A stretch of 64,000 nt of DNA from Psammoneis japonica (GCA_008632985.1 QPGO01000130.1:124001-188000); one strand, 5' to 3'. Shown: positions 1,377 through 64,000, numbered from the stretch's first letter. Translations and numbers: made by a program. The notes: generated from the sequence alone by a model not told the origin.

Positions 1377-1412
1377 TTGTGTGTGCACACCACAGAAGGC
1401 AATGAGTTCAAG

Positions 1413-5769: not shown

Positions 5770-5795
5770 CTCTAATGTGCAATTAGGGAGGCGAA

Positions 5796-6174
5796 TGCAA
5801 CATGCGTTGTCATGTGCGTGTTGTGCGCGCATGTCTGCACATTAAATGAAAGTGTGTTTCAATCGTGCGTCAATCGTGGGTTCGTACGAAGTACAGATCA
5901 GTCACACAGAAGTGATCGGATGTCGAGAATCGCAAATGCGATCGTACGATGATGTTGACATCTTATGTGTCAACATCAATCGCATCCGGACAATCTGTCA
6001 TCACGATCATGTTCTCCGAAAGGCCTTTTGTCTGCAGGAGCAGTGCAAAAGGTTTAGGCTGTTGAGAACCCGTTCGGAGAAACCCAAAATGATTGCGTGG
6101 AAATAATTCTTATAATTTTCACCTTTTGAACTTCGTTCTACTTTCGTTTACACTCGTTCTTCGAGCACAGTGCA
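5796..6174 (+). repeat. 3' LTR
   Basis: Colinear with 998-1376 and followed by the CTGC duplication. Confidence 0.93.
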
Positions 6175-6424
6175 CTGCTGCCCCACCGCAGCGCAGCGAG
6201 CGCGAGCGCACCGAAGGGAGGAGGGGGGACGGACAGTCCCGAATTTTGGGCGCGCCAAAAAATCAAAGGTGCGCCACTCCCTAGCGTTGAAAAGGTAACC
6301 AGGCTCTGACATTTTTGTAGAATCAAAGAGACGCACGTCATGATGAAACGCTTGGGAGTGGCATGCGAAGATCGCAGAATTTTTTGTCATCCACAAACCC
6401 AAAACACAAAAAAGAGCGTCCACC

Positions 6425-43364: not shown

Positions 43365-43512
43365 AATCTTGTGTGGAATTTGCGCTGAAAAAGTCTGTCA
43401 ATCTGTGCATCAGGGGGTTTGGCAAGCGCTGGACAGACTCGACGTCTTTTGTGCACATGAAAATTGCACTGGCAAAGACCCCCAAACACACTGATGAGCA
43501 GATTTTTTCAGC
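43365..43512 (+). repeat. Dispersed repeat, homologous to about 57786-57987
   Basis: AAAAAGTCTGTCAATCTGTGC...GGACAGACTC.ACGTCTTTTG...CCCCAAAC.CACTGA.GAGCAGA shared by both loci. Confidence 0.85.
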
Positions 43513-43987
43513 AATGAATGTGTCGATTGCCGTCTGTCGCTCGCTGACTCTGCTTTCTCTCGTGTCTGTGACGCGCTCTCAGTCGAAGCACCAGACCTCG
43601 AGCTGGAGCTCCCATTCCGGGGACCCAGAATTGGAACTCTAGCTGGAGAGCCGCAAAGGGTGGGCGGCGTGGGCTGCAAGCAAAACTCGCTCTCTCGTCT
43701 CGTCAACGTGCAGCGCAACGTTGATGAAGAAAAAGAGCAAGCTTGCTGCGGCTCTTCTACCGTACGACGCGGAGCGCGTCGTCGAAGCAAGCAGATCGCG
43801 AAAACAACCCCCCACTCGCGCAGGGGGGAGGCACAGACCACTATCCACTATCTCTCATTGGTCTCCGATTTTTGGCGATGGCGCTACGGGCGACGACCTC
43901 CTCCTCTGAAAAACAAAAAGCAAAAGGAGTTCACATTACTGTATTTTGTGTGATGAAACCCTCGTTTCTTTTGTTCGCATTGAGAAA

Positions 43988-45091
43988 ATGCCAAGAGCTG
44001 TCTCCACGTTTTTGCTGGGGACATTCGTCGTGATTCTTTTGCTCTACCTTGATTTTTTGCCTCTGGGTGCTCTCGTGAAACGTCATGGAGAGAACGCCGT
44101 GTCAACCCACAAGTTGCAACGTGATGCGTGCTCCCAGCTCGAGCGATTTGAAAAAGCGACATTCTCTGAAATCTCCTCGACGAATGCTGAGCTTACTCCT
44201 ATTCGTCTTCCGAAAAATGACTTCACGCTTCTGCACATTGGAAAGGCTGGAGGCGGAACTTTCAAGAACCGATTGGGAAGCATGTGGAACATTCGTCACG
44301 TTCAATGTCACCCAACGCCGTGTCGGGAACGATTGCAGGAAAAAGACCAAGAGACTGTGTTTGTCATTACCCTTCGTGATCCAATTGATCGTTTTGTGTC
44401 TGCCTTTTATTGGAGATCCATTGTGTTGTGCCATCCCGACGGAGATGATCGCAAAACAAACGGAAAAGCCTTTTTGAATCCCAACAAGTATTGTGAGGCT
44501 CGCGATCGACAAATCGAAACGGACGTTATTTTTCATAAGTACAAGCGCAATGTCAGTTTGTTGGCGGAAGCAATGTGTCGCAATCCACAAGGCGCTCGTT
44601 TGGATGCTGAAAGCATCCGACACGCACGGTTTTCTATTGAAGATTGGTTGGGACATGGCTGGAGAAATGTGACAGACGTTTTGTTTCCAGTGGTGTTGGA
44701 AAACGAGTTTGACTACAATTTGCAAATCGACAATGCTGTTCATTGGGTCAATGATCGTCTTGATTTTGCCAATGCGTCCGACATGGCTCTCCGACAAGCA
44801 CACGTGAATAGGATTGATTGCCAACTGCTGAAACAGCAAACCGACACTAGTGCGGATTTGTCTCGAGAAGTCACTGTCTCTCGACATTCCTCCTCCTTGT
44901 CAAGTAGAGACTTTGCTTTGCTCTCATCCTTGAGTGAATCCTGTCTTGCTCTTTATTATAAGCGAGATTATGACATTCTTCGAGAATTGAAGGAATTTGC
45001 TTGCAAGACAACCTTGTGCCGTGACGCGATTCAATCCATACTGGACCGACGTGCACCCTTATTACGTCGTACAGGCAAAGACACGGATTAA
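43988..45091 (+). CDS. Sulfotransferase family protein (type II membrane, Golgi-like)
   Basis: N-terminal hydrophobic anchor; PAPS-binding motifs LLHIGKAGGGT and LRDPIDRFVSAFYW. Confidence 0.8.
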   Translation: MPRAVSTFLLGTFVVILLLYLDFLPLGALVKRHGENAVSTHKLQRDACSQLERFEKATFSEISSTNAELTPIRLPKNDFTLLHIGKAGGGTFKNRLGSMWNIRHVQCHPTPCRERLQEKDQETVFVITLRDPIDRFVSAFYWRSIVLCHPDGDDRKTNGKAFLNPNKYCEARDRQIETDVIFHKYKRNVSLLAEAMCRNPQGARLDAESIRHARFSIEDWLGHGWRNVTDVLFPVVLENEFDYNLQIDNAVHWVNDRLDFANASDMALRQAHVNRIDCQLLKQQTDTSADLSREVTVSRHSSSLSSRDFALLSSLSESCLALYYKRDYDILRELKEFACKTTLCRDAIQSILDRRAPLLRRTGKDTD

Positions 45092-45340
45092 AACAGAGAC
45101 ATGATGAGATTTATTTCTTGCGAGAAAGGAAGGAGAGCCACATGCATTGCATTTCGTGTGTTTGCTGAGTTGAAGCCCGAAACATGTTTTGCACCGAGAT
45201 GGTCACTGGTATGGCTGGATAGTTGTTTGGATCTCTGTACTGGCAAGAGAATATCACCAAGACAATCTAAAAGCTTGCCTGTCGCATCACGACATTATGA
45301 TACAAGGGTTTGAAATTGAACAAAACGTATTTTTCAGACT

Positions 45341-45865
45341 TTATGCATTAGGGTCCAATGGATTTCCTTCTTTGTCCAACAGCACCGCCTCAAAGGAGTC
45401 GTCGGCGTTGAATTCCACATCCAATGTACATCCCAATACCTTGAGGAGTGCATTGGGGTGCACGGCCAACAAAGATGCTCCCTTTTTGTCTTGGCAATTT
45501 AATTCCACCACTTCGTGTCGTTTGGTGATGTTGTCGGTGGACATGAAATCAAAGGAAAACACCATGCGAGGCACACCGGTGTTGGATTGTATGTACTGCA
45601 ATTGGATTGTTTTTTTTTCATTGTCAAGCAAGGAACAAAACAGGGTATTGGCCTTGGGAGTAACTTGTAAGGGAGGTATTTTTTCAAGCCGACGACGGGT
45701 CTTTTCTTTGTTACGAGTACCATTGGAAGAAAGGAATCGAATTGGGTTGGAAATCATTTGTGTTGCCCCGCCATTCCAGAATACAGGAGTGTCACGGATG
45801 CGAGAGACTCCAACGCAACATTGTCTTGAGAATTCCAAAGCAAAGCTCCTCTGTTTCATCATCAT
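45341..45865 (-). CDS. Hypothetical protein, weak IscA/HesB-like resemblance, possible mitochondrial targeting
   Basis: Intact 174-aa ORF. PLQVTPKA...FSFDF...LAVHPNALLKVLGCTLDV pattern, but the C-terminal CxCG motif is absent. Confidence 0.6.
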   Translation of the reverse strand: MMMKQRSFALEFSRQCCVGVSRIRDTPVFWNGGATQMISNPIRFLSSNGTRNKEKTRRRLEKIPPLQVTPKANTLFCSLLDNEKKTIQLQYIQSNTGVPRMVFSFDFMSTDNITKRHEVVELNCQDKKGASLLAVHPNALLKVLGCTLDVEFNADDSFEAVLLDKEGNPLDPNA

Positions 45866-46009
45866 CAGGCCTCGTTGACATGGGATAACGTCGGCTTGTG
45901 CTGCCGGGGTGCAGTAGTTAGTCGCGTCGCGACGTGCGTCGCGTCGTCAGTCGTCATGGTTCTTGACCGCCCGACCGCCGACCGACGGTAACCTTACCAT
46001 CCGGCGAGC

Positions 46010-46215
46010 ACTCTCTACTCTACGTACTCTCTCTAGAGAGAGTACCGTAGCTACTACTAGAGTAGCGCTCTACTCTAACTAGAGAGTAGAGAGTAGCGCT
46101 CTACTCTAACTAGAGAGTAGAGAGTAGCGCTCTACTCTAACTAGAGAGTAGACAGTAGCTACTCTCTACTAGAGCTAGAGTAGAGAGTAGAGCTAGTAGC
46201 TAGCTAGAGAGAGAA
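46010..46215. repeat. TAG/CTA-rich low-complexity tract with three copies of a 31-bp unit
   Basis: AGAGTAGCGCTCTACTCTAACTAGAGAGTAG at about 46059, 46090 and 46121. Confidence 0.9.
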
Positions 46216-46418
46216 GTAATAAGACAACTTGAAACTACATTTGATGCATCTTTCGCTGCTGCTACTTTCGCTTATCCCCTTGATGTGCCCAAACTGCAGA
46301 GAGTACTACGTAAACCAATAAAATACAGACGACTGCATCAGCAAATGCAAAGGGGACAGCTCTCTACAGCGAGAGGTAGCAAGCCCTACAGACAATCGAC
46401 TTGAATGACTTTGCACAG

Positions 46419-47906
46419 TTAGTGGGGCCTTGGCCTTGGTATGTAATCCTTCGTTGCTCTCCGGTGTAACTTATCAACGAGCATGGTGTATCTGGTATCG
46501 TTGGCAAGGTTGAATTCTTCCGCCTGATCATGCACCATATTGAATAGCTGCACTTTTCCATCATCGTACCAGCAATACTTCCAGGATCGCCATCGGATCA
46601 TTCGTCCACCCCCACCTATATATGTTTCGCAAAGGGCCTGCCGATTCATCCCATTCTCGTTTCCATCAATAAGTGGCAATAATGATGCTCCATCAAGTCC
46701 TTCCGGAATCTGAATGCCGCACATCTGGTACATTGTTGGAACAATGTCAATGAGTTGAACCGGCCACCACACCTTCTCTTCGGAAGGAAGGGAGGAAGGG
46801 TGTGAAAGTATCAGTGGAACCTTAACTGAATCCTCATAAAAACTGGTCTTGTACCAAAGGCCATGCTCTCCTGCCTGCTCGCCGTGATCTGAAGCGTACA
46901 CGATTATGGTATCATCACGCAGCCCTTTCTCTTCGAGTTTCTCCACGACACGCCCTAACAGGCGATCCGTAAAGGTGACCTGACCAAAGTATATCGCTCT
47001 TGCCTTTTTGATTTGCCAATCTTCCATGCTTTCAAATCCGTACTGTCTTCGATGTTCGGCGTTTATCCTTGGCAAGTCTTGCAACATTTCCTCTGAGACT
47101 CTTGGAAGATCAATAATGTCCTTGTACATTTCGTAGTACTCATCATCAACAATGAATGGGAAGTGCGGATTTTTTAAAGAGACGCCAAGAAAGAATGGCT
47201 TCGTGCCATTGTACTTGTCAAGCCAGGCGATTGCTTCGTTTGTGAAAATCACGTCCCCTTGATGAGTTATATTGCTTGGAATAGTTTGGGCTCGTTGTGG
47301 AAGGCGCCCTACTGATGTGTGGAAAGCATTGTAATCACGGAGAAGCTTATAATATTTGTTTCGGATAGCCTGGTTGTTGGCTCCATCAAAACCCAGGCCC
47401 TCGTTATCAGTGCCCCAGTGTTCTTTCCCGAACCACATGGCCAGATATCCAGCTTCTGCAAAGACGCGTGGGAGCGTCAATGGTGCATCCCTCAACACGT
47501 CGTCCTTGTGGGCCCAGTTTCCAAACACGCCAACTTTGGATGCCATCTTCCCCGTCGCCAACGAGGCACGAGACGGTACGCAACTGCGAGAGAAGTTAGA
47601 GCATGAACAACATTAGCAAAATGCCATCAACAAAAACTTATGTAACAATTATGACAAACGCGACGGTACGCACATTGGATTCTGACAATAAGCATTTTGA
47701 AATAGAACCCCCTTTCTAGCTAGCGCGTCCAAGTTTGGGGTTTGGATAATAGGATGGCCGGCTGCACCAAGCAATCGCCCAGAGTGTTCGTCCGACATAA
47801 GAAAGAGTACGTTTTTCTTTCGTGTTTCCTCGTTCACTTCAGCACATTCTGCCGTCCAAACGAAGAGGAAGACGAGAATGATGTATAGATGGCTTTTCTG
47901 GCGCAT
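46419..47906 (-). CDS. Formylglycine-dependent (S1) sulfatase, choline-sulfatase-like, with signal peptide
   Basis: NVLFLMSDEH, CVPSRASLATG, GKEH, NPHFP and SDHGEQAGEHG. Exon 1 47674-47906, GT-AG intron 47584-47673, exon 2 46419-47583, in frame. Confidence 0.93.
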
Positions 47907-48859
47907 ATTTTTAGATATCGTTTGATGCCGGGGGAAGAACACAGCAAAGAGATACGGATTGTGCACTTTGCGGTTTGCACCAAAATGAAATCAATTTCAA
48001 TTTAGCCCAACAGATTTGCGAACTCCGACACGATCTATGAAGGCCGGAACATTTATTTGCGATTTACTTAAGTCTCAAATAAATACAACGATGACACCTT
48101 TCTTCTCACTTATAACGAAATTTCAATAAATGTTTGGGCCTGACATGCAAATACGACGAACTTGAGAACACTATTATAATACAGTAGATTTCTAAGGAAC
48201 ATTCATGTAGTACTGTATGACCTACCGTACAGTGCCGAAGGTCATGGATTTTCGTCTGCCCGTGTGTCTTCGCTTTTACCCCAAACAAATCAAAAAAATC
48301 CTCAATCGCAAAAATGCGCATCATTGACAATGACCCTCTTCCCGCCATCACCATTTGTGTTGCACGGCAATTTGGTCAATGCCATCTTGTCAATCACAGA
48401 CCAACACACCTCATGATGCATTTGTTCATTGCTGATGTGGCGGGTGTGGCGTCGTCTGTCGCCGATCTTTGCAACAGAGACGATGAGCCGGGATTTTGTT
48501 TTGACACAAAACAATCATGGATGTCTGCAGGGCATCATTTTGTTGTGACAAGTGCACTTTCGATTTGAGCATCAAGATTGCCGCTGATCTTGTGCACTGT
48601 TTTTAAACATGGGGGTGTTGTCCAGCTGGCAAGATGCGTCGATTCATGCCTTTGTTTTGCAGCACATCAAACTGTGTGGGCAATGTGAGGAGGTGTTTCT
48701 GTCACCATGGCATTGTTGTTTTTTGCATCAACATTTTGGTGAGGGTCATTTTCATTTTGTGTGAGCATCACATCCGTTGAATGTCATGCACTGCATCCAC
48801 CAGGGCTTCAGATTGTCATTGTCGTCACACATGCACTCTCCTTGCTGGGCCGCAGGGTG

Positions 48860-49185
48860 GAGGGGGGGGACTCTTCTGTGGCATCCAACTCAAATGCATC
48901 TCTTGGAGGAACATGGTCCTGCCAACTTTCTCATGGTGGTTCCCATCTGATGCTGCTGTGCTGCAAACTTCCAATGTCTGCATCTGGGTGAGGGGGGGGG
49001 GGGGTGCAAACTTCCTGCTGCAGGTGGTGGAGCTCCCTTGCCATCCCTGCAGGGCAGGTGCAGCTGCTGGTGCAAACATCCAGCATCCATTCATGGACAA
49101 ATTTTCAGTGTGTGTTCTTCACACACAAGGATTGCCAGACACTCATGCACTGCACACAAGGTTGTGCACTTCTGCAGGAGATTCC
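48860..49185 (-). repeat. Dispersed repeat, inverted relative to about 58015-58350
   Basis: GTGTGTTCTTCACACAC.AGGAT, CATCCCTGCAGGGC and GCTGTGCTGCAAACTTC match the reverse complement of the 58.0-58.3 kb segment in order. Confidence 0.8.
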
Positions 49186-52100
49186 ATGAATTGCAGCGTT
49201 CATTTTTTTGTGAATGATGTTGGCTGTGATGTCACATGTTGTGTTGCCCACCATTCATTGCTTTTCTTTTCATGTGTGGACAAGAGAGTTAACACAACAT
49301 CTTGTGTGATTCCATCACAACAACACACAATTGTTTTGTGTTGCATGTGAGAGAAGGAGAAGATGATGTTGTCAAAGGACAGTTCAAACGATCTGAGTTT
49401 TGAGCTTGCAACTGTCCATGATGTGTCAAAGGTGCCAGTGCTTTGTCTCAGTGTTGTTGAGAAAAATTCAAGGAAAGTCATTCTTGGCTCTGATTCCAAC
49501 TGAACTCACCTGTTTGACCAGAAGATGGAGCCCAGCCATGAGAACAGTGCAGCAAAGACATTGTTTGCAAGCAAAAGGCAGTTGGGCATGCCAGCACAAT
49601 GGCGCCAAGAAGCATGCACAGTTGGAGCAGTTTTGAATGGCACCCATGCAAAAGCCTTCAGTTTGATGCTCCTGCAATGGGCACAGCTGAGCATTTGATC
49701 AGATTCATGGAAAAAGCAAGGACGTTGATCCAAGAGAAAAATCCTGCTGGGAAAGATTGTCGCAGCTGTTGACAAAGGAGTTGTTGTTTTGGGTTGGCAC
49801 ACTGTTGGGTGCTGATCTTCTGGTTTCTGCATGCTGTTTTGTTGCTGCTCTTGCTGAGATGATTTTTTGTTGACATCAACAACTTTTTGGAAAAAAGTGG
49901 GTGCTTTTCTGCTGAAGCCAATTGCAAGAATGAGTGGAATTTTTGCATTTTGGGTTGGTTTGTGTTGTTTGTGCTTCTGACTTGACATGCATGGCAGCAA
50001 GCAAGACAAGTTGAAGTGGTTTCAGTGAGTTGTCAGTGCTGTGAAAGGTTGCATCAATTTTTAAATTTATGACATCATCAAAGTGTTGTGCTTGTAAGGC
50101 ATTCAAACAACTTGGATCAGATGAGCACACCTTGGCAATGCTTCAGTCCATTCCAGAATTGAAGAACAAGGAGTGACATTGGTTCAGAGTCATTGGACAT
50201 GTTGTTCAAACAAGGAGTGTTTCTAGAATCAAAGTCAAATTGTGTTGGAGCCAAGCAGTGTTTCATGTTTCCAATGCAGTTTTCTTTTTGTTGCGTTGCA
50301 TGATGACTTGTTGTCATGTTGATTTCTTGCATTGTTCTCTTGAGTTGAGTGATGGCATGAGTCTCAGTTTGTGCCCAAATTTGCAGAAGCACTTTGACAA
50401 GTTGGGAGCACATTTGCAGAAACAAGAAGCTCACATTTCCAAAGGAAAAGCAGCAGCAAAGGAGCAAGTTGCAGAGCTGACAGATTTCACGAAGTTCTTG
50501 TGGTGCAAGAACCAGCGATGTGTCACAAAGACTGTGATCACAAGTTCAAGAAGGTTGAAAAACTTCATGAGGACATGTGTTCAAAGACAAAAAAGTTTGT
50601 TGATGTGTGGAGTGCAGCTCCAAAAGATCTCACACAGGATGAGAAGCGCAGCTGGCAATGTTTGCAATGGTGTGTTTCAAGATGATGCTGGCAAGAGGAG
50701 TGGGAAAACCTGCAATTGATCAATGACGGCAAGCACTTGGAAATGTGGGATGTGATGTCATGTCATTGGTTGGAAGCATCACTCATTGGTGGCATTTGAT
50801 GTGTTTTGCTGGAAACTGGTGTTAAATGAGGTGACACAGATTCTTTTTTTAGCAAGGCATTGGGGTGATGGACCAAAAACAGGGCATTCTGTTGAGCTCT
50901 TTTTTGTTCTGTGCTGCCATGTGGCCTTCTGTTTGGAATTGCCATCAATGGGTCCATTGACAAAGAAGTTTGCATTCTCAAGCATCAAAGTGGCAAGGTC
51001 TTGCATTTTCTTCTGTCGTGAATGGAGACCTTCCTGCATGTTGCTTGGATTTGTTGAAGTGGCATTTTCTGCATCATGTGTGTTTGAAGCAAAGGACAAA
51101 TGCAGTCTAAAATGGATTTGTTCTAAGCTCAGCAATGACAACAAAATGGAAGAGCTGATGGTCAAGTGGGTCGAGGCTGAGTTGGTTGACACTCCCACTG
51201 GGGTTGGCTTCCATTTCAAAAGGCTGTCAAAAAGCATTGTGGCGCACATGTGTTGTCTGTGATGATGAAAGGGAAGACCCTTGCATGTCACTCTGTGTTG
51301 GAGCTCATCCTGAAGGGCAAGATTGATCATCTCCAATGTTCAAAGTTGAAGTTTTGGGTGCGTGATCAGAACATGTTCCAAAACAACTTTTTTGAATTGT
51401 GCAAGTGGGTGTTTTTAAAAGACACAGATGAGAATTTGCATCACAGCAATCTGGAGGCAGTGGCAGCCTGTGAAAGGAGAGTTGCTCAATGAAAATTTGC
51501 TTGAGGAATCACCTGTGAAGGTTTTTGGATTTCTGCAAGACAAACATTTTGATCATGGGTCCCTTTTGTGTGCCAAGGCAAAACTCATGGAGTTGCAAGC
51601 AGACAACCTTGAGATTGTTTGCATGTGGCATTTCAAGGAACAACAAATCAAGGGGGCATGAACTGCATGGTCAGGGTGCGACATTTGGGTTGTTCATTTC
51701 ATGTGCTGGATTTTAATTTGTTGAAGAAAAAATTGGCAGCACATTGTTGAAGTCAACTGGTTTCATGCTCTGGTGACTGGACTTCAAAGGAGAAAAAAGA
51801 GGCTGTCCAACACAATCTCAAACCAATGATCAATTTTGTTGAGACAGGCAAATTAACTGAAAATGAGGCAAAGTTGCTTGTGGTGCATGACAAGTTTTCA
51901 AAGATGTTTGCTCATGCACAGTTTGATGCATTTTCACTCACGTGGCCAAAGCAGAACAAAGGTTGTCAATGCAGTTGGAGTTCAGTCCTGTTGTGGAAGA
52001 AAAGCAGGATGTTGCAGAAAGTGGGGCTGTCATGAAGCAGCCAGAGCACAGTGCATGGACAGGTGGCAACTCTGAAGAGACGAAAAGTTCTGCCAGCTTA

Positions 52101-52399
52101 GAAAAGACTTTGTCTGGTCTGAAAAGAAGGGAGTTCGGTTGGCTCTGAAAAGATTGTGTCCATGTCATGTGTCCTGCTCAAAGTGCAAGCTCCACAAATG
52201 GATTGGATGCCATCACACTGCCTGGTGGTTGCCAGCAAGCCTCTTTGCCATCTTGCTTGCTCAGTGGGCAGGATGTGACATGGTGTGACCATTTCAATGT
52301 GTTTGACTTGCTTGTTGTCAAGTGCACTGCATGCAGCACACAGTGAATGAAAACAACACAACAACTGTGGTGTGAAAGTGTGGTGGAAGACTTGACCAG

Positions 52400-53950
52400 A
52401 AGAAGATGAAAAGATGACCAATGTGGAGTGCAATCAGCACACAATGTGCTCATTGCACATGGTAAAATCTACTTCAACTGGAACAAGCAGAGTGGTCAAG
52501 AACAATGCAAACACTGCAATGTGAGCATGGTCTTGAAACAGTTGATTTGCAAGGGGCAACAACAGATGACCACATGGCATGTGCTGAATGAGCATTTCTC
52601 CATTTCCACAACTTGTCAAATTGCAACAACAATGTTCAACTCAACAAGCAGCAAATGAGAACAGCTTGAGAGTTGCATGGTCAACGTGATCTTGAAATGG
52701 CCAATTTGGAGTGTGCAATGATGTGGGGCCAATCTGGTCTGCAAACGGCCATCATTTTTCTCCATTTGCACAACTTGTCAAATTTGATGCTCTCTCAAAA
52801 AAGGGGCTTGTTGTGCATGATTGGTGCAAAAACCACAAAAACTAGAACAAGCAGCAAGCAAGAACATGACATGAGTTGCAATTTTGACATGGTCTGCAAA
52901 TGGCTAATTTGGAATGTGCAATGGCAGATGACCAATGTGGTGTGCTGTTGGCCATTTTTCCATTTGTGTGGCTTGTCAAATTCATTGGTCTCCTGTGCAA
53001 TGTGCTTGTCACAACAACCAGAACAAGCAATGGACAAGAAAATGATGTGAAAGCTGCAAGCAACATCAACATGGTCTTGAAACGGCCAACTTTGAAGGGG
53101 CAATGACAGACAACCAGTGTGGTCTGCCAATGGCCACATTTCCATGTTTGTGCAACTTGTCAAATTTAATGCTCTCCTGTGCAACGCACTTTTTGCATGT
53201 TGCAACAACAAGTCCCAACAAGCAGCAAAAGAGAATGAAATGAGAGTTGCAATGTCAACATGGTCTTGAAAGGGCTGATTTAGAGTGTGCAATGACAGAC
53301 AACCAATGTGGTCTGCAAATGGCCATTTCCATTTGTGCAAAGAATTGAACTCATCGCTCACCTGCAAAATGTTCTTGTTGTGCATCGCACAAAATTGCAA
53401 TGACTGGAACAAGTGGAAAATGGGAATGACACAAAAGCTGCAATGTTGTGCAGTCATGAAATGGACAACTTGGCATGTGCAATGACAGATGACTGGTGTG
53501 GTCTTGAAAAAACCCATTTGAAGGGGCAATGACAGATGATTTGTGTGGTTTGCAATCAGCAATTTTTCCATTTGCGCAACTTGTCAAATTTGTTGCTCTC
53601 CTGTGCAATGTGCTTCTTGCATGTTGGAAAAATGACAACAACCAGAACATGCAGCAGACAAGAATGATGCAAAAGTTGTGATGTTTTGACATGGTCTTGA
53701 AATGGCTGATTCTGAAGAGATTGCAACAGATGACTGACTTGGTCTGCAGTTGGCCATTCATCTGTTTTTGCAAATTGTCAAGTTGGTTTCTCTCTTGCAC
53801 AATGTGTTTTTTGTGCACCACAAGAAAGACAATTGCCAGAACAAGCAGCACATGAGAACAGTGCACAAGTTGTGACGTTGGTGTCTCCATTTGTGCAACT
53901 TGTCAAATTTTGTTTCTCTCCTGTGCAACACACTTTTTGTGCACTGCTGC
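52400..53950. repeat. Diverged satellite-like tandem array, about 8 units of 130-240 bp
   Basis: Core TCCATTTGTGCAACTTGTCAAATTT or a variant near 52599, 52761, 52959, 53140, 53328, 53567, 53758 and 53886, usually with ATGGTCTTGAAA upstream. Confidence 0.8.
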
Positions 53951-55310
53951 CCTGCAGACATCTTCACTGGGTCCACTGCACAAACTGGACATTGCCTTTG
54001 TAACATGCGTGCATGGGGATGTCCAGTGTGTGTTCTGGACTGTGCACTTCATTCAACTGGGAAAGAAATTGCCCCATTGGCAACCACGCTCCTGCTGAGG
54101 TCTCTTCCTCTGTTCGAGTCACACCCCACTCCAGTGAGGTGCCCCCAGTCCTCAACCTGCAGACTGGCAGCATGACTCCCCAGTGTTCCATTGTCTTTGA
54201 GACAATTGTTCACTGCCACATCATCAATTGCAGGGGAGAGTGACCTGGCAACAAGCCACTGGGAAGAACTGCATCTGGTGCAATCTTTTCAGATTCCCAT
54301 GGAAAAAACCAGCTGGTCCATCTCAATGACAGCTGGCTGACTCTAGACAAACTGCAGCAATGCAAACAGAGGGAGCGTCACACCCCACTCCAGTGAGGTG
54401 CCCCCAGTCCTCAACCTGCAGACTGGCAGCATGACTCCCCAGTGTTCCATTGTCTTTGAGACAATTGTTCACTGCCACATCATCAATTGCAGGGGAGAGT
54501 GACCTGGCAACAAGCCACTGGGAAGAACTGCATCTGGTGCAATCTTTTCAGATTCCCATGGAAAAAAACCAGCTGGTCCATCTCAATGACAGCTGGCTGA
54601 CTCTAGACAAACTGCAGCAATGCAAACAGAGGGAGCATGCACAAGGTGCTTGTGCCCACATGCTGGGTTTGAACCACCTGCCCCAGACACATTGGCATTG
54701 AAGCAACCAAGGGCTCTTGAGTCACACTGGATCTGCCACAACTGCTGCCTTCTGAGTCCCATCTGCCACACCTGCTGCTGCCTCTGAGTCTCTGCTGAGT
54801 CTCTGCTGCTGGCTCCTTTTCTGCAATTTTGATGACACCAGAACCTCTCCCAACTGCTGTTCCAGAGGGAGCTCCCTCACTGCACCAGTCAAGTTGATTG
54901 GCCAAGAGGGGCAGAGATGGTCTGCAATGCTTGTGGATGAAGCTTTTTTTGTTCCAGTCAACTTACAAGATGAGCTTCATGGAACTGCAGCACAGTTGGC
55001 ACATCTGGCAACTCTGGACACCTGCTTTGACATGGAAACATGCAGCATCAATGATCCCATTGTTTGTGCAACTGCTGAAAAGCACAAAGACCCTGACACA
55101 CACCACATTTGTGTGAAGCTGTGTCAGTCATGTGAAGCTGCTGACAAATGAGTCAAGGTGATAAAAATTGAGATCAACATGCTGCTCCACCATTGTGCAC
55201 GGGATGTGGTGCCAAGAACCTCTGACATGAATGCATTGCCAGGTGCGTGGGCTTTCAAGCCCAAACAACTCCCTGACAGTGCACTTTTGAAGTGTGAAGC
55301 TCCCCACCAG
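53950..55310 (+). mobile_element. Degenerate Ty1/Copia (CoDi-like) fragment: post-integrase region to RT start
   Basis: WGCPVCVLD (for WGCPVYVLD), GKKLPHWQPRS, HSSEVPPVLNLQTGSMTPQCSIVF, DPDT and MNALPGAWAFKPKQLPD. Confidence 0.85.
54118..54636 (+). repeat. Near-perfect tandem duplication of 259 bp
   Basis: Units 54118-54376 and 54377-54636; the only difference seen is one A in a homopolymer run. Confidence 0.93.
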
Positions 55311-55329
55311 TTCACCAAGCAACCACTCA

Positions 55330-56207
55330 GTGTTGAAAGATGAAAGTTCAACTCAGGCTGAAAGCCCTTCTTGGTGTTGGTCTTTTGCTTTGCATTGGAA
55401 GACCTGCGACTCTTGCCACCTCTTCCACAGCCACAACTTTGGCCTTGGTTCTTGCCACCTCCTCTGTTGCTCACAGTGCATGATCTCAGCATTCAATTGG
55501 CTGTGTGTGGGTTGGCATTTTGCTCCAAGCACTCAGTGCTGTGCTTGTGACTCTTTGGAGTGAATGTTGAACCAGCAAGTCAATGTCGCCAAACGGGAAT
55601 CCTCTGAGATCTCCTGTGATGCTTGTTGCACTTGCCTTGGTGGTCTGCAGTGGCCACAGGTTACCTGCAGTGTCAGTGGCCTGGAAGACATGCCAAGAAT
55701 GGCGGTGGCCTTTCTGTGCTTTGAGTCTGGAAGGAATTTCTCTGTTGCATCTTTCATGAATTTCAGTCCGCCGAAGAAACATTCAGAGCAATTGAGACAA
55801 AGTTTGCCTTTGTCAACATTCAGGCATTTGCGTTTTACTGTTGTGGTCTTACTCTGTTCTACTTGGCGTGGCACTGCAGTGGCAGACAAAGATGCAAGAG
55901 AGTGCAAAAGGTGCACCAACTGCTGGTTCAGCTGCAAAAGGCAGCAAGGTTCAATCCGTTTCTGATGCATCGCATCTTCACACTGGAAGCGTTCCTGATC
56001 TTGAACAAGGGGCAATTGGAACCAGCCTTGGCAAAGTTTGATGCTGCAATTGAATGGGCGCGAGAGTTCAAGAGTCCCTGCGACAAGGCCGTTGCCTGTG
56101 AGCACGCCGCGATTTCACTAAAAACGAAATTGACCGCGGTTAACCTGTTTGATCGTTGGGGAGTCGCAGCAAAAGTCGAACAACTGCGGCGCAAGTATAG
56201 TCTTTGA
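55330..56207 (+). pseudogene. Decayed 3' part of an AAA-ATPase/TPR-like 'transcriptional regulator' family gene
   Basis: C-terminus FDAAIEWAREF....KAVACEHAA...FDRWGVAAKVEQL resembles the Y..WGA.AKV tail of that family. The upstream part is frameshifted and TG/CA-rich. Confidence 0.55.
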
Positions 56208-56337
56208 TCGTGAACGCAAACGATGGAGAAAGAAGCGGAAACACGGAAAACACAACCCAATCGAATGTTTAATGGGTGCGTAGTATGCTTTCAATGGCAT
56301 GAGCACTATCATTGTTCATAAATACAACTATGTAAAA

Positions 56338-57660
56338 CTACGCGTACTCGCGGACACCCTTGCTCTTGGCGTATTCGTCCACCGCCACACATCCAGCCTG
56401 GTCCTTCCACACCGCATTGTTCCGACGCAGACAGGTGCGAATGTTCATGCCCGTGGTATCACGCTCCATAATGTCGTGTCCACACTCCTCCACCAGAAAC
56501 TTGACGGCGAGCAAGCTTCCATTCTCGGCCGCCAAGTGGGTGGGAGGTTTCTTGCCAAACACAACGTCGGTGGTGGCATGGGAGTTGGCCCCGTTCTTTA
56601 CGAGCATTCGAGCAAGTTCGACTTGGTTGGTGTAGCACGCCCACGCAACGGGGGCACTGTCGGCTCGGGTGACCATTACCAGGGTCCGTGGATCCGTCGC
56701 CAACCACTCCGCAATCTCGAAATTCCCACGACGTGCCGCCCACTCCAGGGCATTTAGGCCGTATCCACGGACAGTAATGTCGGTAATGTCCGCGATGCTT
56801 CCGTCCGGCTTTGGGCCCGAAATACTAATAACGTGCAAGACCAGCGGTAGGATCTCCTTGGCGAGCTCTATATCATTCAAGGTGCCGCAGGCCAACAAGA
56901 ACTGATTCGTCGGGTGCAACTCCTTGACGTCCGAAAAATACTCGGTGCGTTGAAAGGTTCCGCGCTTCCCGGCGCTGTCTTGTGCCATGGTTCTCTGGAG
57001 CATGGCAAATTTTTGGTCGCCAAACGCTCGACGCAAGTTTTGCTCCGCCGCCGGGGAGGCAAAAAAGGTACCGGGCTGTTCGTTTCCGCGCAATTCTCCG
57101 TTGGTGGAAAAGAAAGTCAGATTGTGGGCTTCTGGATGGTAGCTGTACGAATAGTTCCCGACCCCAGAAGCTTCTGTACATGCGCTGCCCGACTTGGCTC
57201 GTTGCTTCCGCTCCTTCTTGGTGCTTCTGCGGTCGTGCTTGAGCTGTCTGCAAACGAGCTTATGCTCTGGCCAGGCAGCCTTTTGACAGGCCTTGGAGCA
57301 GTACTCAATATTTTTACAGGAGAGGCACTGCTTCAACTCTTCTGTTTCTTCGGCTTTGCCGCACCAACTGCAAAAGGTGCCAGCGGCTTGCATCACGATT
57401 TGGGAGTCGGGATCGGTGCGTTTGTGCAACCCCTCGTGGGCTGCCGCGCGGACCGGTTTGGCCTTTTTCTTCTTGGTATTTCGTTCGTTGGTTGCCGGCA
57501 CAATAGACCGATTGATTTCCTTGCCGGCCTCCACGCAGTCCTTGCATCGCCTCTCGCGGCGGCACATCCATTGCTTCTTGGAAAAGGCGGCTTTCGGCAG
57601 ATGTTCTCCGCACGCACCGCAGAGCTTTTCTTCTTCTCCTTGGCCGTTTTCGGAATTCAT
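56338..57660 (-). CDS. MYND zinc finger plus ankyrin-repeat protein with an N-terminal CxxC domain
   Basis: CSWC...CLSCKNIEYCSKACQKAAWPEHKLVC; ankyrin-like ALEWAARRG and PTHLAAENG; intact 440-aa ORF. Confidence 0.9.
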   Translation of the reverse strand: MNSENGQGEEEKLCGACGEHLPKAAFSKKQWMCRRERRCKDCVEAGKEINRSIVPATNERNTKKKKAKPVRAAAHEGLHKRTDPDSQIVMQAAGTFCSWCGKAEETEELKQCLSCKNIEYCSKACQKAAWPEHKLVCRQLKHDRRSTKKERKQRAKSGSACTEASGVGNYSYSYHPEAHNLTFFSTNGELRGNEQPGTFFASPAAEQNLRRAFGDQKFAMLQRTMAQDSAGKRGTFQRTEYFSDVKELHPTNQFLLACGTLNDIELAKEILPLVLHVISISGPKPDGSIADITDITVRGYGLNALEWAARRGNFEIAEWLATDPRTLVMVTRADSAPVAWACYTNQVELARMLVKNGANSHATTDVVFGKKPPTHLAAENGSLLAVKFLVEECGHDIMERDTTGMNIRTCLRRNNAVWKDQAGCVAVDEYAKSKGVREYA

Positions 57661-59854
57661 AGTAATACGGTCGTCGCTATTCTGTGTTTAACTTTTGATG
57701 TTTCGATCTGTTTTGTAGGTGTAGTAGGCGGCATCCTCAAGTCAAATAAAAAGATACCATGGCAGAACCAATTTTTTCGGACAGGCGGCTGAATGAAGAA
57801 CATTGTACTGTTGTGTAGAATTTGTACAGACCGACAGTACCGTACTAAAAAAGTCTGTCAATCTGTGCGTTATGGGTTTTGGTGAACGCAGGACAGACTC
57901 AACGTCTTTTGCTGTACCATGCGCGTAAAAATTTGGAATGGCACTGACAAAACCCCCAAACCCACTGACGAGCAGACTTTTTTCAGCCACGTCCCCACCC
58001 CAACACTGGATGTTCCATCTCCTGCGGAAGTGCATGACCTCGCATCATGCAGGACATGAGTGTTTGGTGATCCTCGTGTGTGAAGAACACACCGTGTTGA
58101 ACGTTTGTTGGTGCACCAATGCTGGAACATTCACACTGCACCAGCCAGCAGTCGCCCCGGCCGCCCTGCAGGGATGGGTGAGGAGGCGGGAGCTCAGCCG
58201 CCCACTGCACCAACAGAAAGTTTGCATCCCTCCACCCTGCCCCACATGCAGACTCAAGAAGTTTGCAGCACAGCGGTGCCAGACAGGAACCATGGGAGCA
58301 AGAAAATTGGCACTTGGGCCGCGCCCCCATGAGGATGCAACTTGCACACCTCACTGCAGTTCAGCAGGAGCCCATGCAAGAAATGTTGAGCCACCCAGGA
58401 ATCCCAGCATCAAAGTTTGCATCCCCCCAGGAACACAAGGGTGACAAGTGCATGTGGTCAGAGGAACAACAACTGCAAAAAAGTCTGCACCCCCCTGGAA
58501 CCCCCACAAAAAGTTTGCATTCCTTTTTGTGGTGCTCCCTGCACGCCCCACAAGAAAGTTTGCAGCCTTCCACAAATGCAAGTGTGAGAAGGCAAAAAAA
58601 ATGGACAAGTCTCCCCCCTCCATGGCCCAGCCAGGAGGGTGTGACAACAATGACATTCTGCACAAGCGGCAATTGCAAATGAGACATGTTCACCTTTCTG
58701 CAGCTCACAGTCATTGGGTTCACAGGCAGATGGCCTGACTCTCCAAATTCTTTGCAAAAGAAGTGAGAAACAAGATGAAAAGAGGCTGGCTCTGCACCCT
58801 TGGTCTTGCCACAAGACAGTTTCTTGACATCAGCTGAAGTGAGACTGAGCAGACTCCTCAGTCTCACAGCAGCATCAGATGCAAATCTGTCCACTGAACC
58901 GGCTCTTTGTGATTTGATCAATGACAGGAGATGCAAGGGGCTCAGCAGTGTGGTGCCTTCAGAAAACAATTGTGAAGATCACCTTCTCAGACTCTGAAGC
59001 AACAGTTGTTGCACCAGGCTTGTGAAGCAAAAGCGTGCTCTTGAGTTGCTCCAACCATGGTTTTCTCTCTTCAATTAAATCTGCCTGCCATCCCAAATGT
59101 TCTCTCAACAAACACTCTGTGCTGCAGTCAATTTTGCTTCCCAGTTCTTGCCATGCACCAAAAAACCAAAGCAGCAGTTGCTGAAATGCAAGCAAAGAGA
59201 GTCAGCTGTTTGCAGACCTTCACAGGACAAATTCTGAGGAGTGGAGGGACAATCCAACCAACCATCTTTGACCCAGTTGATGGGTTTCAAAATCAAATTG
59301 TGGGTTTCTTTGTCAGCTTGATTCCATTTTTGTGTCTTTGATGATTCAATCAGGTGGTCACATTTTTGAGAACATTTTCTGTTTGGCAACTGCAACAGTT
59401 TCCAGCCACTCCAGTGCTGATTGAAGTCATTTTTTCTGGCTCCAATGTCATCCCCAGAGTGATGCTGCGAGTCATGTGACAACTCAAATTGGGATTGTGA
59501 CCACCTTTTGAATTGCTCTGCATTTGGTTGCAAAGCCCTCTCACATGGGTTGGTGACTTCCACTTCTCTTTTCAGTTGAGAGGAAGAGTGATGAGCATCT
59601 GACATTCACAGATGACTGTTGCCCCGTGCATCATGGATTTGTTGCCATTGAGTCTTCCAGTGATGGCAACCAGAGTTGCATTTCTCAACCACTGGCTCAA
59701 TTTTTCTCCATGATCCTTTGAGAAATCTTCTCACAATTTGCATCTTTGGAGCATCTTGTTGTCCCCTTGCCACATCTGTCACATCCTCTGTGTTGCACTG
59801 TGCAGCCTCAAGAGAGGTCACTGTAATTGCATTGAATTGTTGCACCCCATTTGT

Positions 59855-60175
59855 TGAATTTTTTTCATTGGGGCTGCCAAAACAGGGCATTGGTCTTTGG
59901 AGCAACTTGCAAGGGAGGCAGTTTTTCATGCTGACAATGGGAAGTCTTTCTTGTGCTTTGTTGTCAGTGCCACTAAAAAAAAAAAAGAACTGCTGGTTGG
60001 TTCTTTGAAAATCATCACCATTTGTGTTGCCCTGCCACTCCAGAACACAGAGGGTTGTCATGGGTGCAAGTCTAGAGAATTCCAAAGCAAACCTTCTTTG
60101 TTTCATTGTGTCAGGCTTCATTGGTGTGGGACAACAATGGCTTGTGCTGCCAAGGTCATCATGGTTCTTGACCTC
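59855..60175 (-). pseudogene. Decayed partial copy 1 of the 45341-45865 gene (5' half and upstream sequence)
   Basis: GAGAATTCCAAAGCAAA, AAAACAGGG.ATTGG, GGCTTGTGCTGCC and CATGGTTCTTGACC are shared; MKQRRFALEFSR versus MKQRSFALEFSR. Confidence 0.88.
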
Positions 60176-61244
60176 TCAGCTTTCATTGGTGGATGCAATG
60201 CTGCCAGCAAGCCAAGAAAACAAGAGGCCAAACACAATGAGAGAAATCTCTTGTGGGGGTGGCCAAGCTCTTGCCAGAGTTGCAATCTTGCATGCACGCA
60301 CAAGCAACAGCAGACAGCAGTGCAGATGTGGAAGATGGACAGACAGTGGACAAAACAAGACAAGGCGGGCCAACCCAAGCACCCCCCCTTGCTCTTGGCA
60401 AGCAGTTGGCAACATGGGGTCATTTGCAACAAGCCAGAAATGGTGCCCCACACTGAACCCAGCCCTCTGTTCGTGCAGTGGCAGGGAACAACTCCTTTTC
60501 TTGGGTGTGTGTGAGGCACTCTAGAGAGCCATGGACAGGACCCACTTGTTCACCTTGCCAGCCACAGTTGCTGAAATGCAGGCAAAGAGAGTCAACTGTT
60601 TGCAGACCTTCACAGGACAAATTCTGAGGAGTGGAGGGACAATCCAACCAACCATCTTTGACCCAGTTGATGGGTTTCAAAATCAAATTGTGGGTTTCTT
60701 TGTCAGCTTGATTCCATTTTTGTGTCTTTGATGATTCAATCAGGTTGTCACATTTTTGAGAATTTTTTCTGTTTGGCAACTGCAACAGTTTCCAGCCACT
60801 CCAGTGCTGATTGAAGTCATTTTTTCTGGCTCCAATGTCATCCCCAGAGTGACGCTGCGAGTCATGTGACAACTCAAATTGGGACTGTGACCACCTTTTG
60901 AATTGCTCTGCATTTGGTTGCAAAGCCCTCTCACATGGGTTGGTGACTTCCACTTCTCTTTTCAGTTGAGAGGAAGAGTGATGAGCATCTGACATTCACA
61001 GATGACTGTTGCCCCATGCATCATGAATTTGTCACCATTGAGTCTTCCAGTGATGGCAATCAGAGTTGCATTTCTCAACCACTGGCTCAATTTGTCTCCA
61101 TGATCCTTTGAGAAATCTTCTCACAATTTGCATCTTTGGAGCATCTTGTTGTCCCCTTGCCACATCCATCACATCCTCTGTGTTGCACTGTGCAGCCTCG
61201 AGAGAGGTCACTGCAATTGCATTGAATTGTTGCACCCCGAGTGT

Positions 61245-61563
61245 TGAATTTTTTTCATTGGGGCTGCCAAAACAGGGCATTGGTCTTTGGAGCAACTTGC
61301 AAGGGAGGCAGTTTTTCATGCTGACAACAGGAAGTCTTTCTTGTGCTTTGTTGTCAGTGCTGCTAAAAAAAAAAGAACTGCTGGTTGGTTCTTTGAAAAT
61401 CATCACCATTTGTGTTGCCCTGCCACTCCAGAACACAGGGGGTTGCCATGGGTGCAAGTCCAGAGAATTCCAAAGCAAACCTTCTTTGTTTCATTGTGTC
61501 AGGCTTCATTGGTGTGGGACAACAATGGCTTGTGCTGCCAAGGTCATCATGGTTCTTGACCTC
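61245..61563 (-). pseudogene. Decayed partial copy 2 of the 45341-45865 gene
   Basis: Same segment in the second unit of the 1390-bp duplication. Confidence 0.88.
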
Positions 61564-64000
61564 TCAGCTTTCATTGGTGGATGCAATGTTGCCAGCAAGC
61601 CAAGAAAACAAGAGACCAAACACAATGAGAGAAATCTCTTGTGGGGGTGGCCAAGCTCTTGCCAGAGTTGCAATCTTGCATGCACACACAAGCAACAGCA
61701 GACAGCAGTGCAGATGTGGAAGATGGACAGACAGTGGACAAAACAAGACAAGGCGGGCCAACCCAAGCACCCCCCCTTGCTCTTGGCAAGCAGTTGGCAA
61801 CATGGGGTCATTTGCAACAAGCCAGAAATGGTGCCCCACACTGAACCCAGCCCTCTGTTCATGCAGTGGCAGGGAACAACTCCTTTTCTTGGGTGTGTGT
61901 GAGGCACTCCAGAGAGCCATGGACAGGACCCACTTGCTCACCTTGCCAGCCACTGTCTGAGCAGCAGCAGCAGCAGCACATGAGACATTGCTTGGATCTG
62001 TCTGCACATGCTGTGTGCACACAAAAGTCATGTTTGTGCATCCACAAACTTGCAGCCATTGAGGTGCAGCAACATGACTTGCATGTCTGTTTGCACATGT
62101 GCCATGTGTGCTCACAGATTGCACTCATGTGTCTACAGACTTGAAGCAATCAAGGTGCAGCAACATGACTGTGTGATGTGTCATTGAGATGCAGCCCAGC
62201 CATGGTGGTGATAAAGAATCTCTAATTCCTGGGGTGCATGGGGATGGCCAATTTTGATCCTCAGATTGTTGCTCACACATGCCACATTGTGCACTTTGTC
62301 AGGGGAGTGAAGTGTTCCCAAGACATCAAAAAGAGAAGAAATGGGCAAAAACCTCTGTTTTGCATGAGCAATGTGGTGGTGACTCCATGTCCATGCTGTG
62401 ACTGGGCCACCAAGAGGTGTGCTGAAACATCTGACACCATGGTCTCCCTTCATTGCAAGCTTGAACAAGCCAGAAAGGTTCTTGAAAGCACACACACCCA
62501 AGTGAGTGACAATCACAAGCACCATGGGGTCTGCCTTGGTGGCAGCAGAATTCTTGCAGCATGCAGACTGCAAAGAATGGGCTTGAAGGTTTTCTGGCCC
62601 TGACAACCATCTTCTCCTCTACACTGGTGGTGGGGGTGACAGCAGCAAAATTGTGATGGAGCCATGATTGCACATTGGCTCACAGCAAATGGAAAACAAC
62701 ATTGGCCACAAGCTTGTCCTTTAACTTGCAAAGTGAGTGGGTGAGAGGAGAAAAGCAAAAAAGGCATTGTGAGAAGAAGATGTTGAGTGCATGAGTGTTT
62801 GTCTTTTTCTTCTTGTGTCACAATCTTGGTCCTCTGTTGACACAAGTGGAAGCCAGCTTCACCCCTCAGCTTGCACAGCTGAGTGCAAAATGTGGAGAAA
62901 GTGGGCAACTCAAAAACTCTGCCTGCATCACCAGCTGGGGGATCAATTGCAAAAGATTTGAGCAGGGTTTGAGTCAGTGCAGCCAAGCACTGGCTTGCTC
63001 CTGGTGGTGTTCATTTTTGTCATTGTGCAGATGTTTTCTTGTGCCATTCTCCTTTTGTTGCAGTGCAGCACAGAATGAGTGCAAAAGTCACAAAACACCC
63101 TGCCAAGCTGCTGGACATTTTAGCATCTGCCAGGTGCAAGCAGTGCCACACAAGCAGAGTGGCAGGCAGTCAGCACATCTCATGCAAGTTGAGGGAAAAG
63201 TGTTTTAGAAAATGACTTTTGTTTGACTGGGCCAAAGTGGCTTGCAGAGTTGTTGCCAACACAAGCAGTCTCATGCCCCACAGTGCAAAGCTGTGCAGAT
63301 GTGCATCATGCTCAATTTCAACATTTGGGGCTTTGCCACTGGCCCACCCACCCACCCAAAATCAACTGCCCTCCAACTGCATGGCAAAGCTTTGGGCATG
63401 CTTTTCCAATGTGTGAAAACTCAAAATTCATCAATGGCAAAAATGGTGCTCATCTCTGCAATGCTTGCCTCAAAGCCATCCTGCCAACAACCCCCATCCC
63501 ATGACTGACATGCACATCCCATGGTGTTGTGACAAAAAAAACTTCTTCAGTCTGCATTGTGCACTGTCAGGTGACAAATGCAGCTGGTTGTTGCAGGTTG
63601 CATTGTGGAAATTGTGAGACTGGTTTGTCTCCATGAGAAATGGAGTTGAGTGAGCAGGGGTTGTGCAAATTCTTCTGTTGGCTCACATTTTGAATCACTT
63701 CTCTGATCCTGTTTGCACATGAAATCATGACACACACATGCACATGCTGCTTCATGTGTCAACAGCATGGGGGAGAGTTGCACATGCTGTGCTGTTCATC
63801 CTGAACATCAAGAAGAGTTGCATGCTGGATGATGGTGCAAGGACTTGCAAGTCTGTCAGGATGTGCAAGCTGCATGGTTGTTTGCTGTTGTGGTTGTGCA
63901 TTTGGTTCACTTGGCAATGCATTCTTGCAGCTGGGACTGGGAATGATCAACCCCTCAAATCTCATGCTCATTGCTGGTTGTCATGCTGGAGAGCCACTTT

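Follow-up and report, generated by a model that had tools for sequence, protein, structure and literature searches.

A gene segment present three times in one stretch of the Psammoneis japonica genome raises the question of why one copy has kept its CpG and TpA dinucleotides and the other two have lost almost all of them. The stretch comprises 64,000 nucleotides (GCA_008632985.1 QPGO01000130.1:124001-188000, one strand, 5' to 3') and is referred to here as the window. One copy stands in a gene-containing island, and the two decayed copies stand in a domain almost devoid of both dinucleotides (Table 1). We found that the CpG and TpA sites of the segment were converted to CA or TG in the decayed copies and that the same loss extends over half of the window. 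A domain-wide erasure of CpG and TpA probably accounts for the decayed copies, and we consider it the best explanation of the locus as a whole.

Conversion of CpG and TpA in the decayed copies

We aligned the island copy with the first decayed copy over the region in which homology is secure (45636-45907 and 59878-60156, respectively). The alignment has 301 columns, with 202 matches, 48 mismatches and 51 gap columns, and the mismatches comprise 36 transitions and 12 transversions. Across the 250 ungapped aligned bases, all 11 CpG sites of the island copy are altered in the decayed copy, to TG at five sites, CA at four and other dinucleotides at two, as are all eight TpA sites, to CA at six and TG at two; 17 of these 19 sites now read CA or TG. 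By contrast, the CA and TG of the island copy are retained at 28 of 32 sites (19/19 altered versus 4/32; Fisher p=1.8e-10). Changes from C to T or G to A (19) are balanced by changes from T to C or A to G (17), and the decay is therefore GC-neutral. In the homologous segment, the island copy has 13 CG and 8 TA, decayed copy 1 has 0 CG and 2 TA, and decayed copy 2 has 0 CG and 1 TA. Over its 401 bp (45575-45975) the island segment retains 26 CpG and 12 TpA, compared with 0-2 in the decayed copies, and its observed-to-expected ratios (o/e) are 1.13 for CpG and 0.46 for TpA, the latter a value typical for islands. Indels and transversions are also present in the decayed copy, as is typical of old pseudogenes. 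In two other pairs, each of an island-edge and an erased sequence, CG and TA were lost in the same way: between 31124-31233 and 37202-37323, 4 of 4 CG and 1 of 1 TA are altered, and between 57.8 and 43.4 kb, all five aligned TA are altered in the copy that lies within the TpA-free zone.

These results bear out an earlier note on this DNA, which had compared 45641-45698 with 59883-59940 and reported four TA>CA and three CG>TG/CA changes; the sequences and positions are as it gave them, and both signatures, CG to TG/CA and TA to CA/TG, are present and directional. Its description of the island copy as untouched is accurate in a relative sense, in that CpG and TpA have been kept, but the island and decayed copies differ by two CA↔TG doubles, which leaves room for one or two hits on the island lineage, and TpA is also low (o/e 0.28) in the sulfotransferase-like gene next to it. 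The decayed copies lack a 44-bp CG-rich stretch of the island 5' flank (45908-45951), through either insertion on the island side or deletion on the decayed side.

The two decayed copies arose from one another by tandem duplication. Self-comparison of the window identified two units, 59175-60568 and 60565-61956, arranged head-to-tail, and the derived states are identical in both units at 18 of 19 sites. Most of the decay therefore predates the duplication, and the two copies cannot be counted as independent. Thus, the copy near 61273 does carry the same changes, as the earlier note observed, but it adds no separate evidence; what the note counted as two decayed copies is one pseudogene that was duplicated late (97.4% identity).

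Decay continued after the duplication. The units differ at 34 positions, comprising four adjacent TG↔CA doubles, six CG↔TG/CA and three TA↔CA/TG differences, 11 other transitions and six transversions. A TG↔CA double is expected where a CG or TA present at duplication decayed separately, on opposite strands, in each unit. At site 59938/9, the CG of the island copy corresponds to TG in unit 1 and to CA in unit 2, and this three-way comparison identifies CG as the ancestral state. Similar doubles are found in two further pairs of related sequences, with nine in the long terminal repeats (LTRs) of a retrotransposon and nine in the 26.9-kb pair. Adjacent mismatches exceed expectation in all three comparisons (LTR pair, 10 observed versus 2.1 expected; tandem pair, 7 versus 0.8; 26.9-kb pair, 24 versus 7.1), and 0 of 5000 permutations reached the observed values.

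The decayed element is a relic of a gene with a GUN4-like domain, broken by in-frame TGAs and truncated. PF05419 (GUN4) matched 59108-59605(-) with 34.0 bits, above the cut-off of 29.2, and matched copy 2 with a score below the cut-off; the domain relic of copy 1 lies at about 59093-59401. An exhaustive, profile-free phmmer search with the decayed frame returned 184 proteins at E<=1e-3, and the best-scoring stretches of all 184 fall within query residues 159-334, the GUN4-like C-terminal half. A word-based search with the GUN4 relic had found no relatives, and the family emerged in the exhaustive search. Within the window, tblastn with seven of the 184 proteins found GUN4-like sequence only at 59.1-59.4 and 60.5-60.8 kb. 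The pseudogene body of copy 1 contains no Tyr codons. We also considered the 338-codon frame of this body as a sign of coding constraint and rejected it, since frames of at least 150 codons are common by chance in TA-free DNA.

The relationship between the island locus and the decayed element is confined to their 5' ends. BLASTP of the 174-amino-acid island open reading frame (ORF) against the decayed frame aligned residues 3-80 only (E=5e-5), DNA similarity around the island copy fades below ~45575 and stops near 45975, and the common piece amounts to ~330-400 bp of 5' sequence that is 68% identical. The island ORF has no Pfam family, no relative at E<=0.01 among the 38 candidates of a word-based search and no usable Atlas match (recognition 2216). 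Two further descriptions in the earlier note therefore need to be revised: the island gene is at most a possible source of the decayed element, which continues into a GUN4-like domain that has no island counterpart, and the word functional was an assumption about this locus.

A mosaic of erased domains and gene islands

The loss of CpG and TpA extends far beyond the decayed copies. When the window was divided into 500-bp bins, 64 of 128 had at most 10 CG and at most 5 TA, and mean GC content was 0.482 both inside and outside these bins. Four large erased blocks, at about 20.0-30.9, 35.5-43.0, 48.9-55.5 and 58.4-64.0 kb, together hold 159 CG and 99 TA in 30.6 kb, compared with 7217 CA and TG; in the last of them (58401-64000), which contains the decayed copies, there are 14 CG, 13 TA and 1303 CA and TG. 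TpA o/e is 0.02-0.1 in the erased half of the window, and CpG o/e is about 0.1 or lower.

The borders of these domains are step-like, with the last TA at 48277 and 57926, for example, followed by kilobases almost without TA. The two dinucleotides do not end at the same place: TpA ends at 19377, 34788, 48277 and 57926, and dense CpG runs on to ~19777, 34983, 48489 and 58322. On the island side, the TpA-free zones thus exceed the CpG-free ones by 200-700 bp. CpG-rich, TpA-free shoulders were seen near 19.4/19.8, 34.8/35.0, 43.0/43.6, 48.3/48.5 and 57.9/58.3 kb, and 18 of the 128 bins are low in TA with CG kept. Further borders lie at about 31.1 and 55.8 kb. Counts of CA and TG per kb differ mildly, with a sign that switches between blocks; transcription-coupled or RNA-level editing, which we also considered, is unsupported by this pattern.

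One possible explanation for the mosaic is a uniform mutation pressure, with the islands keeping CpG and TpA through purifying selection on their genes. The islands do coincide with recognizable genes (those for a UCH protease, ankyrin proteins, a sulfatase, a sulfotransferase-like protein and a MYND-ankyrin protein), and the genes of the islands are themselves somewhat low in TpA (o/e 0.28-0.61). However, non-coding island DNA also keeps both dinucleotides, as in the bin at 46001-46500 between genes (17 CG, 55 TA) and the CG-rich 5' flank at 45866-45975. Moreover, the borders are steps and not gradients that track codon positions, and synonymous CpG and TpA would still vanish under uniform pressure. 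We therefore consider selection alone improbable.

A Ty3/gypsy LTR retrotransposon in the window provides an internal clock for the two losses. The LTRs of such elements are identical at insertion. Those at 998-6177 now differ by nine TG↔CA doubles, seven TA↔CA/TG differences, two CG↔TG/CA differences and two other transitions, with no transversions. Each LTR still contains 24-26 CpG, so the doubles must derive from TpA; 16 of the 20 events, namely the nine doubles and seven singles, are TA-derived. We estimate that half or more of the ancestral TpA of the LTRs has been altered, versus about 0.5% of other sites. Across the element, in which 84 TpA are left, TpA o/e is 0.24 and CpG o/e is 0.93. 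The loss of TpA and the loss of CpG are therefore two processes, of which the TpA process is much faster. Together with the offset borders, this half-processed element offers a way to separate the two processes and to order them in time. The element encodes reverse transcriptase, RNase H and integrase zinc-finger domains and is flanked by a possible 4-bp target duplication (CTGC). To its right, TpA density climbs only gradually for ~2 kb.

Could the depleted sequence be foreign DNA, such as integrated viral DNA, that avoids CG and TA intrinsically and has undergone no local mutation process? Integrated viruses are the targets of a TpA-directed process in the alga Bigelowiella natans, according to a preprint (Mettrop et al., bioRxiv 10.64898/2026.01.13.699255). 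In addition, 96 of the 99 open frames of at least 110 amino acids in the erased domains have no Pfam family, and the remaining matches are the two GUN4 relics and one sub-threshold match. By contrast, the TG↔CA doubles, the three-way site and the LTR comparison show change after arrival, and the decayed element is a fragment of a host-type GUN4-like gene with an island paralogue. The o/e of 0.02-0.1 for both dinucleotides is also far below 0.45, the lowest TpA value among the viral genomes compared in the preprint. A foreign origin of the composition thus seems very unlikely.

An artefact of sequencing or assembly, in which modified bases in silenced DNA were miscalled as transitions, is less plausible still, and we give it almost no weight. 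Some long-read base callers do make systematic errors at methylated motifs. The depleted sequence is nevertheless matched by contigs from a public sequencing run: one covering 48998-54147 differs in 4 letters of 5149 bases (depth 73), and another crossing one island and both of its flanks differs in 4 letters of 3672 bases (depth 61). The decay also includes indels and transversions typical of old pseudogenes.

Table 1. Features of the window discussed in the text, with positions counted from its first nucleotide.
Feature	Position	Strand	Evidence
Ty3/gypsy LTR retrotransposon, 382-bp LTRs, TG...CA ends	998..6177	+	LTR comparison, domain search, o/e values
Gene island with island copy, sulfotransferase-like gene and sulfatase gene	43300..48500	.	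dinucleotide counts, Pfam
Sulfotransferase-like gene	43946-45091	+	
174-amino-acid open frame (the intact gene of the earlier note), an orphan without GUN4 domain	45341..45865	-	Pfam, homologue and Atlas searches
Island paralogous segment: 5' flank and first ~80-95 codons of ORF 45341-45865	45575..45975	-	alignments, o/e values
Two-exon sulfatase gene	46419-47561 and 47649-47966	-	
CpG/TpA-erased domain with the decayed copies, open at window end	58000..64000	.	dinucleotide counts
Pseudogene body, copy 1: 338-codon frame 59108-60121 with one TGA, more in-frame TGAs downstream	59093..60121	-	frame analysis, Pfam, phmmer, tblastn
Tandem duplication, two ~1.39-kb units	59175..61956	.	self-comparison of the window
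Decayed copy 1 of the common 5' segment	59878..60156	-	alignment
GUN4-like relic, copy 2, truncated at tandem junction	60543..60995	-	24.5 bits, tblastn
Decayed copy 2 of the common 5' segment, tandem duplicate of copy 1	61268..61544	-	alignment

Targeting by domain or by homology

To account for these observations, we propose that this alga-like genome has several contiguous, apparently silenced domains in which two context-specific transition processes would have run nearly to completion, and that one of these domains holds the decayed copies. The first would convert TpA to CpA or TpG, that is, A to G at TpA on either strand; the second would convert CpG to TpG or CpA, the classical outcome of 5-methylcytosine deamination. 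Both processes end in CA or TG, and GC content therefore does not move. A gene fragment, consisting of a 5' segment paralogous to 45.6-46.0 kb and a GUN4-like domain, would have landed in such a domain, been erased and been duplicated in tandem while the last CpG and TpA were still disappearing. The island paralogue would have kept its CpG and TpA because the processes halt at the island border, and not for want of a partner. The loss of TpA may reflect adenine deamination, as proposed for B. natans in the preprint, and the near-balanced CA and TG outcomes fit duplex DNA, hit on both strands, as the substrate better than RNA or one strand. The loss of CpG would similarly reflect deamination of methylated cytosine, and the erased blocks are presumably heterochromatin.

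Repeat-induced point mutation (RIP) of fungi such as Neurospora resembles this erasure in being a defence-like process whose context-specific transitions ruin duplicated or mobile DNA and leave a dinucleotide footprint. RIP converts CpA to TpA, lowers GC content, makes stop codons, needs duplicated DNA and mutates both copies, through RID/DNMT-like machinery active before meiosis. A homology-triggered process of this kind could have acted here, with leakage into flanking sequence, and the island copy could have escaped because the common stretch is too short or too diverged to pair. The clearest recent signatures are indeed in repeats (the LTR retrotransposon and the tandem duplication), high-copy short repeats lie at island edges (word depth up to 37119), and the gradual rise of TpA over the ~2 kb that follow the LTR element on its right resembles leakage. 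However, the chemistry is reversed: TpA is destroyed and not created, GC content is the same in and out of the erased domains, and TAA and TAG are removed. Erased DNA has contig depths of 73 and 61, the same as islands, and is thus not repetitive at present; by this present-day measure, single-copy DNA is affected, unlike in RIP. Only about 5 of 32 kb of erased sequence has a partner in the window. The LTR element is as heavily hit in its unique internal part as in its LTRs, and a TA-rich 31-bp tandem repeat in the island, situated between the sulfatase gene and the island ORF (46059-46159, 3.3 copies, 98% matches), has kept its TA, although it is short. One of the two paralogues is spared here, although the stretch that they have in common is short and old, and a hypermutated viral region of B. 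natans is single-copy in the preprint's account. A homology-triggered process is, in our view, unlikely.

Taken together, these data favour, without proving, the view that erasure is targeted by domain and not by homology, as the earlier note had suggested. Domain targeting is consistent with the sharp single-copy domains, the intact TA-rich repeat of the island and the single-copy region of B. natans. A stronger claim is that a domain-targeted, homology-independent system erases the CpG and TpA of silenced DNA to CA/TG at constant GC content over about half of the sequence while sparing island paralogues; this we put forward tentatively and with considerable doubt. In its boldest form, which draws on general chemistry, one chromatin-guided machinery might underlie both changes, either a deaminase acting on A and on C or 5-methylcytosine, or an oxidation of both 5-methylpyrimidines. 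The 5-methylpyrimidines in the latter variant are the T of TpA and the methylated cytosine of CpG.

Several points weigh against domain-wide erasure as we read it. A 68%-identical, 330-400-bp old duplicate could not test homology pairing, and contig depth reports present-day copy number only. The pair of decayed copies counts as a single event. The run contigs argue against a modified-base artefact only if the run consists of short reads, which is suggested by 31-mer contigs of up to 315 kb, and the run may come from the assembly's own sample. The island ORF is a predicted gene only. In addition, we found no orthologue of the common segment from another species by sequence search or in metagenome contigs, in which two degenerate 32-base patterns from the segment gave 0 matches each. 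Polarity in the segment therefore rests on internal comparisons; the three-way check with an outgroup that the earlier note had called for yielded an internal answer, CG as the ancestral state at 59938/9, and no outside one.

The GUN4 part of the element allowed an outgroup comparison, which also falls short of strong support. We aligned 150 family members and used the columns conserved at >=80%, at which the relic has 22 matches and 15 mismatches. Five of the 15 mismatches are restored by a single reversal of CA/TG to CG/TA (Tyr to Cys, Leu to Ser twice, Arg to Trp, and Ser to Leu), and two are restored by other transitions. These numbers, 5 of 22 versus 2 of 23 opportunities, come from an under-powered test (Fisher p=0.19); they agree in direction with the proposed decay and are suggestive only. 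A score-based test over all GUN4 columns showed no excess (Mann-Whitney p=0.82), because most CA and TG are original and the reversal of Trp codons is penalized.

Differences between the window and the run contigs bear on whether erasure is still active. We inspected 40 of 98 such differences, of which 10 lie in erased or shoulder DNA; two of these coincide with tandem-unit differences and may be cross-laid. The remaining eight clean differences comprise six CG↔TG/CA, one TA↔TG and one other. These eight sites hint that erasure continues, and they may instead be alleles or strain differences.

Relation to known systems

In the literature that we searched, TpA-directed hypermutation in a eukaryotic nucleus has one prior description, the 2026 preprint on viral insertions in one alga. 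According to that preprint, 231 of 302 nuclear mutations in B. natans mutation-accumulation lines fell in two integrated viral regions, of which the larger was confirmed to be single-copy; 230 of the 231 were A>G or T>C, and the GC-biased ones were all at TpA according to the authors, at a rate about 1000 times background (bioRxiv 10.64898/2026.01.13.699255). The authors propose adenine deamination by an ADAT2-like deaminase and cite a preference of ADAR-type enzymes for a 5' U or T before the edited A (bioRxiv 10.64898/2026.01.13.699255). Similar to B. natans, the window shows TpA converted to TpG or CpA on both strands in discrete regions, with a footprint of low TpA and high CpA and TpG. 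Transposon-type domains are over-represented in the targets there, and the targets here include a Ty3/gypsy element as well as a host-type GUN4-like gene fragment; independence of copy number was found in one tested case there, and the erased domains here are single-copy by present-day contig depth.

Depletion of TpA in B. natans is described as modest, with a Rho of 0.45 in the viral region, and as rare, with 124 clusters in about 95 Mb (bioRxiv 10.64898/2026.01.13.699255); by contrast, TpA o/e falls to 0.02-0.1 over half of the window. The domains erased of TpA here have lost their CpG too, and the term CpG has 0 occurrences in the text of the preprint (bioRxiv 10.64898/2026.01.13.699255). 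A fragment of a host-type GUN4-like gene is also among the victims here, unlike the viral targets there. The TpA to CpA/TpG hypermutation itself has thus already been reported for B. natans, and what is new, relative to that account, is the joint and near-complete erasure of CpG and TpA over large domains. The window suggests that the TpA process exists beyond B. natans and can reach completion.

The CpG component resembles the decay of methylated DNA in vertebrates and plants, in that CpG becomes TpG or CpA across whole domains and islands around genes are spared. Its signature is seen in 9 of 11 CpG sites of the aligned segment that became TG or CA, in the six CG↔TG/CA differences between the tandem copies and in six of the eight clean contig differences. 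Vertebrate CpG o/e is typically roughly 0.2; the loss here (about 0.1 or lower) is more complete. It is also spatially coupled, unlike methylation-driven decay, with an even stronger loss of TpA. Clustered transitions in mobile elements recall the editing of retroelements by APOBEC (DNA) and ADAR (RNA) enzymes. These enzymes act on single-stranded replication intermediates or RNA before integration and leave strand-biased runs. By contrast, the differences between the LTRs here arose after integration, the CA and TG outcomes are close to balance, and non-mobile DNA is affected as well.

Combined with CpG decay, the TpA process would amount to a GC-neutral erasure that removes stop codons, shapes large parts of a genome and consumes copies of host genes. 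If erasure is domain-targeted, gene islands would stand in a sea of CA/TG-only DNA in which host gene copies that land are destroyed. One practical consequence concerns annotation. The stop fraction is 0.024-0.030 in TA-free DNA; with TA gone, only TGA can end a frame, and gene prediction is therefore expected to over-call, with spurious long ORFs. Family-less frames of 260-350 codons overlap on both strands of erased domains, for example at 24597-25634(-), 38191-39153(+) and 61054-61899(+). Similarity searches that do not model the decay would in turn overlook decayed genes.

Rfam and tRNA scans of the window gave no match. In the island that holds the intact segment, the closest relative of the sulfatase is 54% identical, and the Atlas matches of the sulfotransferase-like protein are mostly from diatoms and green algae. 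The gene for the latter adjoins the island border and has a TpA o/e of 0.28 and a CpG o/e of 1.13; its TpA is about as low as that of the retrotransposon, perhaps because the TpA process has leaked into a working gene. Within the erased DNA, a near-perfect 259-bp tandem duplication (54118-54636, 99.6%) and an old tandem array with units 66-73% alike (52600-53820) indicate that duplication continues there. A short repeat, the one compared above between 57.8 and 43.4 kb, is found at the edges of two islands (43330-43500 and 57850-57990) and also at 55007-55673. It is very abundant in the run contigs, with the summed word depth reaching that maximum of 37119 versus 60-75 elsewhere, and might be a short interspersed nuclear element, a miniature inverted-repeat transposable element or a border element.

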